From sequence record MN148435: a stretch of 64,000 nucleotides of DNA. The stretch is one strand, 5' to 3'. This DNA is from Shigella phage SGF2. Below the pieces are notes generated by a model. It had not been told where the DNA came from. It did not search any database and was given only the letters and a program-made list of their open reading frames with translations. A program made the position numbers and the translations under genes. Of the stretch, positions 40,858 through 48,461 are shown one piece after another. How positions within the stretch are numbered: the first letter of the stretch is position 1; the number at the start of each line of letters is the position of its first letter.

Positions 40858-41061
40858 TTAGTAGAACGAACGAATTTCATCCCACACTTGTTCCTGTTCT
40901 TTCCTATAAAAAGAAAGTTGGGTCTTGAACATCTCCACTGATGATTCAAAGTTTTTGGTTTGTGCAGCTTCAACGAAACGTTCATGTCGGTTGATTTTGC
41001 ACCGTAGCATTAAATACTTGGCTTCAAGTCTCCGAAGAGCCTGTCTTTTCTCAAGATTCAC
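40858..41061 (-). CDS. hypothetical protein
   Basis: 67-aa ORF. Confidence 0.3.
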   Translation of the reverse strand: MNLEKRQALRRLEAKYLMLRCKINRHERFVEAAQTKNFESSVEMFKTQLSFYRKEQEQVWDEIRSFY

Positions 41062-41470
41062 TTTTCAGATACTCTGACCAGTCGCCAGATTCAACCAGAA
41101 CATCTTGTTCTTCGTCAATGTGATAAATCCAAGCGATAACAGTTTCACCTGAGTCCAGCTTAACGGCAATCTGAGTTCGTTGATAGAAGCTATCTTCAGG
41201 GCTACGTTTATTGTAACCTTCCAGACGATCGTATGGACCTTCCAGACCTGCTTTGTCAGTAGCAAACACTTCTACACGAACAGGCTTATTGTTATTGCTG
41301 TGTGCGAGAGAGATGCTTGGGAAGTAGGAACCACCATAGCGGAACAGATCAAAGTTGTCTTCAGTCCAACCTTCACCAATTGACTTAGCACCAGCTCGGT
41401 CATTAACTAGATAGTTAGCTTGACCACGACGAAGAGAACCATAAGTTGCTACGTAAATTACTTCTGACAT
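41051..41470 (-). CDS. gamma-glutamyl cyclotransferase-like (AIG2/GGCT fold) protein
   Basis: N-terminal YVATYGSLRRGQANY (YGSL-R-G signature) and downstream DRLEGY. Confidence 0.65.
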   Translation of the reverse strand: MSEVIYVATYGSLRRGQANYLVNDRAGAKSIGEGWTEDNFDLFRYGGSYFPSISLAHSNNNKPVRVEVFATDKAGLEGPYDRLEGYNKRSPEDSFYQRTQIAVKLDSGETVIAWIYHIDEEQDVLVESGDWSEYLKSES

Positions 41471-41471
41471 T

Positions 41472-41681
41472 TTAAATACCTTTCCAGTCTTTCATGATGT
41501 TTTCAATATAAGCACACTGCTGATCAGTGGCTCCTGTTACAAACACTTCTAACCCCAACTGCTCGCAGAAGGGATTAAGAATCAATATTCTGGTTTGTCC
41601 GTATGAGTGATGCTCTCGGTAGATAATACACCCAGCATCCCATACAGAGTCAATGGCTTTACTTAATCTTTCATGTTTCAT
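41472..41681 (-). CDS. hypothetical protein
   Basis: 69-aa ORF. Confidence 0.3.
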   Translation of the reverse strand: MKHERLSKAIDSVWDAGCIIYREHHSYGQTRILILNPFCEQLGLEVFVTGATDQQCAYIENIMKDWKGI

Positions 41682-41734
41682 AAAACCTCCAGTTTATCCG
41701 AACTAGCCCCCTCTTTCGAAGAGGCTAAAGCAGA

Positions 41735-41920
41735 TTACTCTGTAATAAAGATTTTAATCACACCGCAGATTGCTGCACTCTCAAACACTGCAACGGCTTC
41801 ACTTCCTTGAAAGAAGGCCACTTTGCCATCAGAGAAGTTAAACATGTCAGCATCTAGGTCCATAGCTCGCATTTCACCAGCGGTATTAGTGTCTTTAAAC
41901 AGAACTTTATACTTATTCAC
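41735..41920 (-). CDS. hypothetical protein
   Basis: 61-aa ORF. Confidence 0.3.
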   Translation of the reverse strand: MNKYKVLFKDTNTAGEMRAMDLDADMFNFSDGKVAFFQGSEAVAVFESAAICGVIKIFITE

Positions 41921-45848: not shown

Positions 45849-45927
45849 TTTCTAATCCACCTGAAGGGTAAACCCTTTCATCTAATTAACCTTTAAATTG
45901 TGCCCCTTTATCAGAGGCACCCATTGA

Positions 45928-47031
45928 TTACAGCGCTTGCTCTAACTGATTTTCCAGATGATCTGGAATGTACCCTGTGATATTGCTATCACTGTGACCT
46001 GACTCACGCAGTAAGTCAAAAATAGCACGGATACGTTGCTCTGGTGCAGATCGTACAGTAGATAGATCAGTTGTACGAAGCATAACCAGAATCTCTTGGT
46101 ACAAGTTGTTAGCGTTCCCTCGGACATATCCAAGGAATCCGTAGAAGTCTGAGATATGACGTAGATCAACAAGAACTTCTCCGTTGGAGTTGGTTCGACG
46201 TAAACGAATACGACCAGACTGTTCTACTTCATGAGAACGACAATACAAAACATCACGGGCCATACAATAACCTGAATGCAAATCCGATTCATCCAGATTG
46301 TAATCCAGAGGAAGGTAAGGAAGCATTGGGGCAAATCGTACAGTATTTAAATGCTCAATAAACTGATCATTGCTCATCTCTGCGTTATCTAAAGCCAGCT
46401 TCTTCAACATCAAGAAGCGGTTAACCAGATTGAGAAGTTGACCACGTTTCCACTTAGGCTCACTGATACGGAACTCGATCGAACCGTATTGGGCAAGTGG
46501 CAGAAGATTCAGGGATGTATACTTATCCCATGAACGAACCAGACGGTTGAAGAATTCTTCATCGTCGTAGTTAAATGCGTCAGAGGCATTCATTACCTGT
46601 GCTTGTACCACTGCGAAAGCAGGGCAGAAGTTGCTACGGTAACGATGATAGCCTGAACACTTGAACAACATCTTTTCATAGAAGGTCCAAGCGAGAATGG
46701 TTTTCTTGAGGATATTACTATCAGCATCCCTCATATCCATATGAACGTGAGTAGAGCAACGCCAAGTCCCCTCGGCGTGCGATTCAGCTACTGCTTCACT
46801 CAGGTTGTTGATAGCGTCTAACAACTCCTGTCCGTTGTAAGGTCGTGAACATACCATTTCACAGCCATTACGCAGGGAACCATCCTCTGTACAATCCCAC
46901 ATATCTGCTTCGATATGGTCGGAGCCTTCGAGTTCTAGTTCGATACCGACACCGCACTGAAGTGCAATTGAACTATGCGCCTCAGTTAAACGACCTTCTC
47001 GATATCCAAAAGTTTGCGCTACAGTTGTCAT
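45928..47031 (-). CDS. glutamine-synthetase-like amidoligase (carboxylate-amine ligase fold)
   Basis: VGIELELEG...EDGSLRNGCEMV...GTWRCSTHVHMD resembles GS-like amidoligase motifs. Confidence 0.5.
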   Translation of the reverse strand: MTTVAQTFGYREGRLTEAHSSIALQCGVGIELELEGSDHIEADMWDCTEDGSLRNGCEMVCSRPYNGQELLDAINNLSEAVAESHAEGTWRCSTHVHMDMRDADSNILKKTILAWTFYEKMLFKCSGYHRYRSNFCPAFAVVQAQVMNASDAFNYDDEEFFNRLVRSWDKYTSLNLLPLAQYGSIEFRISEPKWKRGQLLNLVNRFLMLKKLALDNAEMSNDQFIEHLNTVRFAPMLPYLPLDYNLDESDLHSGYCMARDVLYCRSHEVEQSGRIRLRRTNSNGEVLVDLRHISDFYGFLGYVRGNANNLYQEILVMLRTTDLSTVRSAPEQRIRAIFDLLRESGHSDSNITGYIPDHLENQLEQAL

Positions 47032-47645
47032 AACGAATCCACCAACGTAATATTATAATTGCTAAGGTTTTCAGAAATGTGATGAAAGTGTTCCAGAAGT
47101 CGCATCGGTTGCTGACCATAAGAGTCACGAGGCGCTTCCAGATCTACTTGCCCTACCAGTGCACCTTTATAATGCACCTTACCATCCGTAGGGTTGATGT
47201 AAATATAACGAGTGACCAATCCATCAAACTCTGGATTGAATAGACTGTAAACCATCTCCCCAGAGATAGAACGACCAATCCCAGGAGCATTTCGAATCTT
47301 GTTACCCATCAAACCCTTTGCTCTCTGACGAACAGGGTTAATGTGAGTCCAGCTTACAGTGTTACCGTTATGGAACAGATAACCAACATCAGGTGATTCA
47401 AGAATCAAGGTTGGGTCGAACACTGGAATATTCATCGTAGTGTTTCGAAGGTGCCCTTGCTCATTCTTGTACCACTGCTCTACAACAAAATACAGAGCCT
47501 GTTCTGCTTCGTGAGAGAAGTCATCGCTGCGGAAGTTACCGCTCTGCTCGACACCAATCACAAAACATGGAAGGTTGATATTACCTGCTCGTTTAGCAAT
47601 CCATGTACCATTATAGTAATGAGAAAAATCAGCTACTAAGCTCAC
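47028..47645 (-). CDS. hypothetical protein
   Basis: 205-aa ORF, translationally coupled to neighbours. Confidence 0.35.
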   Translation of the reverse strand: MSLVADFSHYYNGTWIAKRAGNINLPCFVIGVEQSGNFRSDDFSHEAEQALYFVVEQWYKNEQGHLRNTTMNIPVFDPTLILESPDVGYLFHNGNTVSWTHINPVRQRAKGLMGNKIRNAPGIGRSISGEMVYSLFNPEFDGLVTRYIYINPTDGKVHYKGALVGQVDLEAPRDSYGQQPMRLLEHFHHISENLSNYNITLVDSL

Positions 47646-47654
47646 GATAACCTC

Positions 47655-48461
47655 TTATGCTACCTGAAGGAGTTTGATCTGCTGGTCCGCTTCTTTAACG
47701 TTGTTGCCGTTAATGATTTCATGAAGCTTCTCAATCGGAAGGCGAGAGTGTAATGCCATCAGAGTGGACATATCACACTGCTGAACAACTTTGTCAACCT
47801 GATCGTAAACAAACTTACGGTTTTCACGATCGCTAATCCAGAAGTTAGACAGTGAACGGTATTCGATACCATAGTCTTTATAACGGATTGCAGACGCTTT
47901 ACCGTAGAGTTCTTTACGGCGAGTATCTTTATCCATAATAACTGCTGGGAGGGACAGGAAGTAGTCACACAGCACACCCAACATCATCTGAGTTTGCAGG
48001 GTGATATCCAAAGCACCAACTACGCCGAGATGTACGTGACCACCGGCAGTACGAAGCCCTTTATTCTGAGAAGTCGGGGATGGATTCTTCTGACCAGTGA
48101 AAGCGTTGAAATCAGGAGTACATCCGAAGATGAACGCTGATTCATTGAAAGTCTTCATCTCTTCTTCAGTGAAGATGTGAGAGCTAACACCCGGAGCTGT
48201 TTCCATGTCCAGTTTGTTCAGGACATTGTTGGTGAGATCGATACCACGTTGCATGTTATCGTTAAACGCTTCAAAGCCGCTCTGTGGGTCAATATCAAAC
48301 TCAGCCAGTACGTTGTCCTCTTGAAGACGAACATCCTTAGCCAGAGTGATCTTATCGTCCTTAGAACAACCTAACAGACCAGCTACAGAGGTGATAATAC
48401 CATTGCTGGTACGAACAAACATTTCAGGGTCAGAGCCGATAAGGAATTTGCGCTTAGTCAT
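47655..48461 (-). CDS. hypothetical protein, possibly second divergent GS-like ligase
   Basis: N-terminal FLIGSDPEMFV loosely resembles GxExE strand of amidoligases; weak. Confidence 0.3.
   Translation of the reverse strand: MTKRKFLIGSDPEMFVRTSNGIITSVAGLLGCSKDDKITLAKDVRLQEDNVLAEFDIDPQSGFEAFNDNMQRGIDLTNNVLNKLDMETAPGVSSHIFTEEEMKTFNESAFIFGCTPDFNAFTGQKNPSPTSQNKGLRTAGGHVHLGVVGALDITLQTQMMLGVLCDYFLSLPAVIMDKDTRRKELYGKASAIRYKDYGIEYRSLSNFWISDRENRKFVYDQVDKVVQQCDMSTLMALHSRLPIEKLHEIINGNNVKEADQQIKLLQVA

Follow-up and report, generated by a model that had tools for sequence, protein, structure and literature searches.

A cassette of predicted amidoligase genes is already known from the phages phiEco32, LUZ24 and phiRIO-1, since the Pfam family PF14395 is named after a phiEco32 gene and earlier comparative genomics dealt with the cluster. 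Iyer et al. (2009) discussed the phiEco32 cluster, as cited in PMC10580990, PMC11318856 and PMC5498523, and Duhaime et al. (2017), citing Hardies et al. (2013), give the gene set the name 'peptidoglycan modification cassette' and describe it as common to RIO-1, phiEco32, 7-11, PA11, tf, LUZ24, PaP3 and CW02. Other authors class cassette genes as nitrogen-metabolism auxiliary metabolic genes (PMC10945688, PMC10580990). In the literature found, no cassette product, target or mutant phenotype was reported, and only bioinformatic speculation is offered there. We analyzed a stretch of 64,000 nucleotides (nt) from Shigella phage SGF2 (sequence record MN148435; hereafter the window, meaning this whole stretch), in which an earlier reading of the sequence, here called the original prediction, had proposed a covalent-modification system. 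By sequence comparison the window belongs to a phiEco32-like podophage of the C3 morphotype (Kuravirus, Gordonclarkvirinae). A megablast search with positions 41000-48500 returned 97 phage records, of which 64 span most of the query at 90-97% identity; all 64 are Escherichia or Shigella Kuraviruses, including ev_rybdy3, NJ01, SU10, Paul and the BASEL isolate Bas91, and the cassette DNA is 95-97% identical to that of NJ01, SU10 and Paul. The PF14395 ligase, an Amidoligase_2 protein encoded in the same operon, and co-directional genes for a class II glutamine amidotransferase (GATase), an ATP-grasp ligase and a GGCT-fold enzyme beside replication genes are all present. The five enzyme families, the gene order and the neighbours match the phiEco32/LUZ24/phiRIO-1 cassette with no essential difference, and we assign the cluster to this known predicted system as an ordinary member. 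The novelty implied by the original prediction did not hold, the named cassette having been known since 2009; its statement that comparative genomics had predicted such neighbourhoods with an undefined product was correct. Not listed in the literature found, a search which did not extend to the original 2009 and 2013 descriptions, are two accessory proteins of 205 and 323 amino acids (u205 and u323), an alternation between GGCT and Peptidase_C26 enzymes, and an ATT start codon of the GATase gene. Our tentative reading is that the cassette encodes a phage-specific cytoplasmic pathway in which a short branch of the gamma-glutamyl type is assembled, amidated and trimmed, the likeliest acceptor being a protein.

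All five genes named in the original prediction were found where it had placed them, co-directional and on the minus strand (Table 1), and Pfam and PHROG profile searches agreed with each of its fold assignments, including that of the gene offered only as a possible second ligase. In family-wide alignments, each of the five enzymes shows complete or near-complete conservation of the residues expected to be catalytic. The COOH-NH2 ligase matched PF14395 with an E-value of 2.2e-8 (34.1 bits against a cutoff of 25) and PHROG 3815 with an E-value of 3e-118, and positions D11, E13, Q47, D49, E54, R137, H142, H144, D166, D177 and R202 are invariant in its family. Amidoligase_2 matched PF12224 (E 4e-8, 33.9 bits against a cutoff of 22) and PHROG 7469 (E 7e-159), with G29, E31, E33, S52, E58, H95, H97, E119, R130, E186 and R188 invariant. 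Sequence and profile searches found no relatives of these two ligases, or of u205, in the Protein Data Bank (PDB). With respect to the ATP-grasp enzyme, the Pfam RimK and Ddl matches fall below the gathering score (E ~1e-3, 18.2 bits against a cutoff of 21), an orthologue in comparison locus L016 exceeds the RimK cutoff (33.5 against 21 bits), and the match to the PHROG family 'S6 glutaminyl transferase' is 1.6e-187. The best NCBIfam match was MptN (2e-7), followed by rimK_fam (4e-7), both far under their cutoffs. The enzyme also aligns with RimK-type alpha-L-glutamate ligases of the PDB through the LEVNTAPGL metal site (E 2e-3), and the motifs GHSG-GI, YTK, E-x-RVHV, GAVD and LEVNTAPGL are kept family-wide, so that the Lys and Glu-x-Asn residues for ATP and Mg2+ are in place. 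Enzymes of the RimK family of ATP-grasp proteins attach glutamate to carboxylates of proteins (S6, LysW) or of cofactors. The GGCT-fold enzyme matched PF06094 with an E-value of 2.8e-17 (63.8 bits against a cutoff of 22.8), and its Y10-G-S-L-R and L-E84-G-Y motifs, the latter with the catalytic Glu84 and part of a family-wide LD-x-LEGY motif, are kept in at least 90% of 50 family members.

Conservation of the cassette was assessed in 87 GATase-anchored loci, 80 of them fetched from IMG/VR with the GATase alignment, which were searched by iterated hidden Markov models (HMMs). The GATase was found in 87 loci, Amidoligase_2 in 85, the COOH-NH2 ligase in 83, the ATP-grasp enzyme in 82 and u205 in 80, and these five form the core of the cassette. 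Lower counts were obtained for GGCT (59), the primase-helicase (51), the DUF7195 protein (16), the 323-residue protein (13) and a 398-residue protein (9). Co-occurrence across related and unrelated phages, which the original prediction had made a condition of its proposal, is thus far beyond chance. The order COOH-NH2 ligase, u205, Amidoligase_2 is invariant in at least 80 loci; the GATase gene stands before or after this triad, the ATP-grasp gene comes after them, and the primase-helicase gene is next. The primase-helicase gene, which adjoins the cluster in the window as had been stated, directly follows the cassette in 51 of the 87 loci, many of the others being cut by contig ends, and a DNA polymerase family lies downstream in 46. 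In annotated regions the set also stands next to primase or helicase genes in LUZ24, the crAss-like phage phi14:2, CVT22, Asterion, WD615 and Vp_R1. The loci span Kuravirus, Bruynoghevirus, Zobellviridae, Grimontviridae, one crAss-like phage and many marine contigs. A tblastn search with the COOH-NH2 ligase matched 305 phage records, from phages of Pseudomonas, Escherichia, Vibrio, Aeromonas, Proteus, Salmonella, Cronobacter, Klebsiella, Citrobacter and Cellulophaga. When the ligase alignment was searched against one genome each of 100,044 prokaryotic species, only 27 loci were found, most of them on short contigs of metagenome-assembled genomes that carry the whole cassette together with the primase-helicase gene and are therefore phage contigs. 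The u205 profile, searched with HMMER against 1.84 billion representatives, matched 64 clusters, nearly all of them stand-alone proteins of about 200 amino acids. Phages are almost the only carriers of the ligase and u205 families, and the near absence of these families from cellular genomes speaks against a recently borrowed host metabolic pathway.

While the five core families are nearly always present, the GGCT position is occupied by one of two enzymes. Clustering of neighbouring genes identified, in 29 loci, a family of about 210 amino acids that is Peptidase_C26 (Pfam E 1e-14 to 1e-20), the gamma-glutamyl hydrolase branch of the class I GATases, with Cys and His-x-Glu motifs intact. GGCT alone was present in 55 of the 87 loci, Peptidase_C26 alone in 25, both in 4 and neither in 3, so that the two are nearly mutually exclusive; in two of the three loci that have neither, the cassette lies at a contig end. 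At least six switches between the two are required on a neighbour-joining tree of the ligase. Both GGCT-fold and Peptidase_C26 enzymes (GGACT, BtrG, PuuD) act on glutamate whose alpha-amine is free, breaking its gamma-glutamyl-amine bond. A step that takes off a gamma-glutamyl group therefore looks obligatory for the pathway, and because the two enzymes alternate and both folds cleave this bond, a gamma-glutamylated amine, unmasked later, is very probably an intermediate.

The GATase is a class II enzyme (Pfam GATase_6, E 1.1e-14) in which the glutamine-binding Arg, the Asn-Gly oxyanion hole and the Asp are all present. The nucleophilic Cys had been placed at the extreme N-terminus, and this is what the DNA encodes: a TAG stop is followed by AAA ATT TGT GGC, with AGGTGG eight nt upstream of the ATT, and the ATT start is followed by Cys-Gly-Ile-Val. 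Among homologues, 74 of 98 start with Met-Cys-Gly, and the codon preceding the catalytic Cys is ATG in 69, ATT in 12 and TTG in 4 of 85 loci, with a good Shine-Dalgarno sequence in each. The ATT starts are spread over several unrelated lineages, and a start codon that is otherwise very rare is strikingly enriched in this family. The initiator Met would presumably be removed to expose the Cys. While the SU10 GenBank record gives the GATase the same 676 codons, several public annotations shorten it to 563 amino acids (Paul, L001 11820-13508; protein cluster P0020) or, with a GTG start, to 650, and lack the catalytic Cys because gene callers reject ATT. The Cys-rich zinc-ribbon C-terminus of the original prediction was likewise borne out. 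Its Cys pairs are conserved, and the AlphaFold2 model (predicted local distance difference test score, pLDDT, 87) shows an OB-fold and then two zinc ribbons, the second accompanied by a helix, followed by a beta domain that has structural matches to the Y-family 'little finger' and by a third zinc ribbon. No fused synthase domain that could take the ammonia was recognised in this C-terminal part, which holds the OB-fold and zinc ribbons instead, and domain fusions in long homologues were not informative. Gene adjacency, taken by itself, suggests that the GATase is partnered with Amidoligase_2.

The leader of the GATase gene contains, on the minus strand, a stem-loop (45900-45920), a nine-codon upstream open reading frame (uORF; 45881-45852, MKGFTLQVD), the AGGTGG (45862-45857) and the ATT (45848-45846), the TAG stop of the uORF lying 3 nt before the ATT. 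The 8-bp stem-loop directly follows the stop codon of Amidoligase_2 and shows compensatory changes in diverged Kuraviruses. The fold z-score of the leader RNA is -2.7, and the 49 nt preceding the ATT, which take in the uORF and the Shine-Dalgarno sequence, are 100% identical between loci L010 and L011, although identity over the first 600 coding nt is only 79%. In some relatives a Tyr codon replaces the TAG, giving an open frame MKGFTLQVDYKI-CGIV that resembles an Ntn (N-terminal nucleophile) propeptide. This pattern, which suggests regulated initiation or termination-reinitiation, was noted in the window and in L001, L008-L012 and L088. A suppressor tRNA reading the TAG was ruled out, the sole tRNA of the window being a tRNA-Arg (TCT) at 54224-54299 on the minus strand. 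In the distant relatives L013-L020 the GATase gene is likewise preceded by hairpins, with a TTTAAATG(T)AAA-like motif after them, and such a hairpin and motif may represent a terminator or processing site together with a phage-sigma promoter. No phiEco32 sigma-type promoter was found on the coding strand between 38.5 and 53.5 kb of the window. Proteomics of SU10 detected six peptides of the ATP-grasp enzyme, nine of the GATase and two of GGCT, as well as a 23.3-kDa protein equal in mass to the product of the 205-residue ORF; the cassette genes are therefore expressed.

The gene list of the original prediction, right as to its five named genes, had missed u205, u323 and a homologue of phiEco32 gp79. 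The first of these, u205, is as conserved as the enzymes and is predicted to be a non-enzymatic protein with an SH3/KOW-like barrel fold; its best-conserved motif, which includes R106 and G111, lies in a basic loop modelled at low confidence. No matches to u323 were found in Pfam or PADLOC, but hhalign related it to proteins of about 300 amino acids at the equivalent position in 24 marine loci (probability 92%, E 5.7e-7) and to the proteins at the same position in Vp_R1 (93%) and the Aeromonas-phage-like L020 (94%), making it a frequent accessory of the 'type A' cassette order. Remote homology of u205 or u323 to the ligases was not detected by hhalign. The 398-residue gene was excluded from the cassette as Kuravirus-specific, and a relationship of the 323- and 398-residue proteins to LUZ24 gp14 and gp15 was rejected, no similarity being found by BLASTP. 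Small ORFs were considered as carrier or precursor peptides and rejected, as only DUF7195 is shared and none is universal; DUF7195 is restricted by lineage, with homologues at the same position in Vp_R1 and LUZ24 (gp20). In cassettes of the Zobellviridae type (CVT22, Asterion; L004 9000-12000, L005 10588-12066), five or six small paralogues of about 70-80 amino acids are interspersed, all of them ending LEN-E or LEN-K.

Table 1. Positions of the cassette genes and adjoining features in the window
Feature	Position	Strand	Remarks
323-residue protein (u323), fold not recognised	48454..49425	-	directly upstream of and overlapping the COOH-NH2 ligase gene; PHROG 13102
COOH-NH2 ligase type 2 (GCS2-like carboxylate-amine ligase), phi32_86 homologue	47655..48461	-	PF14395, PHROG 3815
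205-residue accessory protein u205	47028..47645	-	between the two glutamine-synthetase-like ligase genes
Amidoligase_2 (glutamine-synthetase-like carboxylate-amine/ammonia ligase), phi32_84 homologue	45928..47031	-	PF12224, PHROG 7469
GATase gene leader: stem-loop, uORF, Shine-Dalgarno, ATT start	45846..45927	-	sequence read directly
Class II (Ntn) GATase, C-terminal OB-fold and three zinc-ribbon modules	43818..45848	-	676 codons, ATT start, Cys2 nucleophile
77-residue DUF7195 protein	43582..43815	-	directly downstream of GATase; PF23825 E 4.7e-17
RimK-like ATP-grasp ligase, acidic linker and 82-residue C-terminal domain	42172..43374	-	Pfam RimK/Ddl, PHROG
phiEco32 gp79 homologue	41917..42165	-	phage Paul annotation; inside the cluster, not a cassette member
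GGCT/GGACT (AIG2-like) gamma-glutamyl cyclotransferase-fold enzyme	41051..41470	-	PF06094
T7 gp4-like primase-helicase	39041..40831	-	ORF and Paul annotation; conserved downstream neighbour, not a cassette member

Starting from the observed folds, motifs, co-occurrence, expression and GGCT/C26 alternation, we envisage a pathway that would be expressed before the late genes and would follow a logic of 'protect, ligate, amidate, deprotect'. The COOH-NH2 ligase, Amidoligase_2 and the RimK-like ATP-grasp enzyme would form up to three ATP-dependent amide bonds through acyl-phosphate intermediates, at least one of which would be a gamma-glutamyl-amine bond. The Ntn GATase would either supply ammonia for amidation of a carboxylate or trim gamma-glutamyl groups, and GGCT, or C26 in other phages, would act last, taking off a gamma-glutamyl group whose alpha-amine is free and thereby releasing a free amine. 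As acceptor we propose a protein from the replication or expression machinery of either host or phage, to which a short glutamyl-type peptide branch would be attached. The conserved u205 and u323 proteins and the OB-fold/zinc-ribbon tail of the GATase suggest a macromolecule as acceptor, and a protein is favoured because proteins offer the carboxylates and amines needed, because RimK- and GS-type (glutamine-synthetase-type) enzymes provide precedents (S6, LysW, Pup), and because non-enzymatic partners are conserved. We infer the order of the steps, the gamma-glutamyl intermediate and the protein acceptor. The chemistry is constrained to three ATP-dependent amide steps, one glutamine-dependent amidation or trimming and one gamma-glutamyl removal, while the acceptor is unconstrained.

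Several points weigh against this proposal. An acceptor gene or peptide was not identifiable in the cassette, where no small ORF is universal, and u205 has neither a conserved C-terminus nor an invariant Lys or Glu. The OB/zinc-ribbon tail is detectable in just 26 of the 87 GATases, contig truncation could account for part of the GGCT/C26 alternation, and the sequence of steps is pure inference. Sets of an ATP-grasp enzyme, a GS-like ligase and an Ntn amidotransferase are equally typical of pathways to small peptide metabolites.

The 'covalent-modification system' of the original prediction stands as regards folds, motifs and co-occurrence, but no result shows a target and the product may be a small molecule. 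In this main rival to a protein branch, which we regard as a real if lesser possibility, the cassette would make a free compound, such as a metabolite resembling a di- or tripeptide, a gamma-glutamyl compound in amidated form or a cofactor, for example folate, with its glutamyl tail remodelled, to serve as antimetabolite, signal or support of nucleotide synthesis, and the accessory proteins would merely hold the enzymes together. Glutathione, ergothioneine, the butirosin side-chain and the Puu/Pau pathways use the same enzyme set of GCS2/GS-like ligases, ATP-grasp enzymes, an Ntn amidotransferase or EgtC-like hydrolase, and GGCT or C26; the best NCBIfam match of the ATP-grasp enzyme is a cofactor ligase, ThyX and other nucleotide-metabolism genes lie near the cassette, and a protein acceptor was not found within it. 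However, the ligase families are virtually phage-only and are not shared with bacterial biosynthetic clusters, such pathways do not usually include two to three conserved non-enzymatic partners or an OB/zinc-ribbon tail, and a transporter, tailoring oxidase, decarboxylase or carrier protein was not found in the Paul annotation or among the conserved neighbours.

The hypothesis of the literature, that peptide linkages of the peptidoglycan stem or of the envelope are altered to bring about superinfection exclusion or wall recycling, appears unlikely. Iyer et al. (2009) and Hardies et al. (2013), as cited in PMC10580990, PMC11318856 and PMC5498523, put it forward, and our literature search found no experimental support for it. 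The cassette is linked to primase-helicase and DNA polymerase genes and not to lysis or envelope genes, it was not found to contain a Mur-ligase, transpeptidase, flippase or membrane-associated component, and the N-termini of its proteins have no signal peptides or hydrophobic anchors. Stem peptides do contain gamma-glutamyl and amidated linkages and are substrates of Ddl-type ATP-grasp enzymes, to which there are weak matches here, but a GGCT-fold enzyme needs an L-gamma-glutamyl group with a free alpha-amine, which the D-isoglutamate of murein does not have, and the OB/zinc-ribbon tail is left unexplained. Archaeal hosts were not used as an argument against murein, as the 'Halobacteriales' contigs have 30-32% G+C and are probably mis-binned.

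An amino-acid-type modification of DNA or of a nucleotide precursor, which would account for the restriction resistance of the Gordonclarkvirinae, is in our view equally improbable. In its specific form, which we consider quite unlikely, the amide ligases, guided by the OB/zinc-ribbon GATase and the SH3/KOW-like u205, would load DNA or a nucleotide, and removal of the gamma-glutamyl protection would leave a free amine that causes the resistance. Such an amine would suit the theme of cationic hypermodification of phage DNA, and the cassette abuts three kinds of primase/helicase genes (gp4-like, crAss-like primase and DnaB-like). In the window, EcoRV sites are over-represented (29 against 14.7 expected) and EcoKI sites are about as frequent as expected (9 against 6.7), and since neither is depleted, site avoidance cannot explain broad restriction resistance; EcoRI sites, however, are depleted (6 against 21.5), suggesting DNA that is exposed to restriction. 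Canonical DNA moreover offers no carboxylate and no good amine to ATP-dependent amide ligases. A base hydroxymethylase, kinase, transglycosylase or DpdA-like enzyme is not annotated in these genomes, and neither a base hydroxymethylase with 5-HMUDK and aGPT-Pplase nor DpdA was found around the Paul cassette or among the conserved neighbours, the window itself not having been scanned gene by gene. The BASEL authors likewise report that no known DNA hypermodification pathway is present. ThyX is present in related genomes and argues against simple dU-DNA, an 'anti-restriction' gene is annotated in phage Paul, and the genomes have been sequenced routinely and relatives restriction-mapped with no anomalies reported. 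A 475-residue nucleotidyltransferase (37121-38548, minus strand; weak PolyA_pol/CCA-adding head domain) lies beside a dCTP deaminase-like gene (36578-37111, minus strand), a pair of genes that, the BASEL authors suspect, takes part in DNA modification.

A role as auxiliary metabolic genes boosting the nitrogen, glutamine or glutathione metabolism of the host, proposed for a Planctomycetes-associated phage and for marine phages in PMC10945688 and PMC10580990, would agree with enzymes acting on glutamine and glutamate but is very improbable, as there are almost no cellular homologues and host enzymes are thus not duplicated, a fixed multi-gene architecture with non-enzymatic partners and a link to the replication module does not fit a general boost, and the published evidence is correlative only.

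With respect to the remaining genes, phiEco32 gp79 is an RNA-polymerase-binding transcription regulator (PMC8948821), and the HMM search of the 87 loci restricted its homologues to nine of the Kuravirus type. PADLOC models of defence and anti-defence systems gave no matches among eight proteins. Upstream of the cassette, positions 51393-53696 (minus strand) hold a tandem array of five paralogue-like ORFs of about 73-84 amino acids, and three further paralogue-like ORFs of 65-69 amino acids with Tyr or Tyr-Tyr ends are located just downstream of the dCTP deaminase gene (35962-36577, minus strand).

The cassette takes up about 7-9 kb, or roughly one tenth of a 77-kb genome, and hundreds of lytic phages retain it, infecting Escherichia, Pseudomonas, Vibrio, Aeromonas, Proteus, Cellulophaga and numerous marine hosts that are uncultured. 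Its solution would reveal either a new phage-driven modification of protein or nucleic acid or a new phage-made metabolite, and might also explain the restriction tolerance of Kuraviruses, which are used for therapy; were the DNA reading true, it would be a new chemical route to hypermodification, one that a crAss-like phage shares with hundreds of podoviruses. The GGCT/C26 alternation suggests a specific intermediate, a gamma-glutamyl-amine species, and together with the accessory proteins and the viral restriction of the families it narrows where to look. BASEL isolates that infect E. coli K-12 open the question to experiment.

Compared with known systems, the RimK/S6 and LysX/LysW pairs share the RimK-family ATP-grasp fold with its metal and ATP motifs and are precedents for ligation to protein carboxylates, but the similarity of the phage enzyme lies far under the family cutoffs, it carries an extra C-terminal domain, and a partner like S6 or LysW with a conserved acidic C-terminus was not found in the cassette. 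From pupylation (PafA, Dop) and ergothioneine synthesis (EgtA/EgtC) the cassette differs in the absence of a Pup-like tag and of EgtB, EgtD and EgtE, and PDB profile searches showed no sequence relationship of the ligases to PafA or EgtA. The Puu/Pau pathways pair a GS-like ligase with a Peptidase_C26 hydrolase (PuuA, PuuD), a pairing paralleled in 29 cassette relatives, whereas the window has GGCT in place of C26, the oxidase and dehydrogenase steps are absent, and the ligases belong to different, phage-only families. The butirosin enzymes BtrJ and BtrG likewise combine an ATP-grasp ligase with a GGCT-fold enzyme, a transient gamma-glutamyl group being released as 5-oxoproline; while the acyl-carrier protein, pyridoxal-phosphate-dependent decarboxylase, monooxygenase and acyltransferase of that pathway were not found here, the phage cassette adds two GS-like ligases and a GATase.

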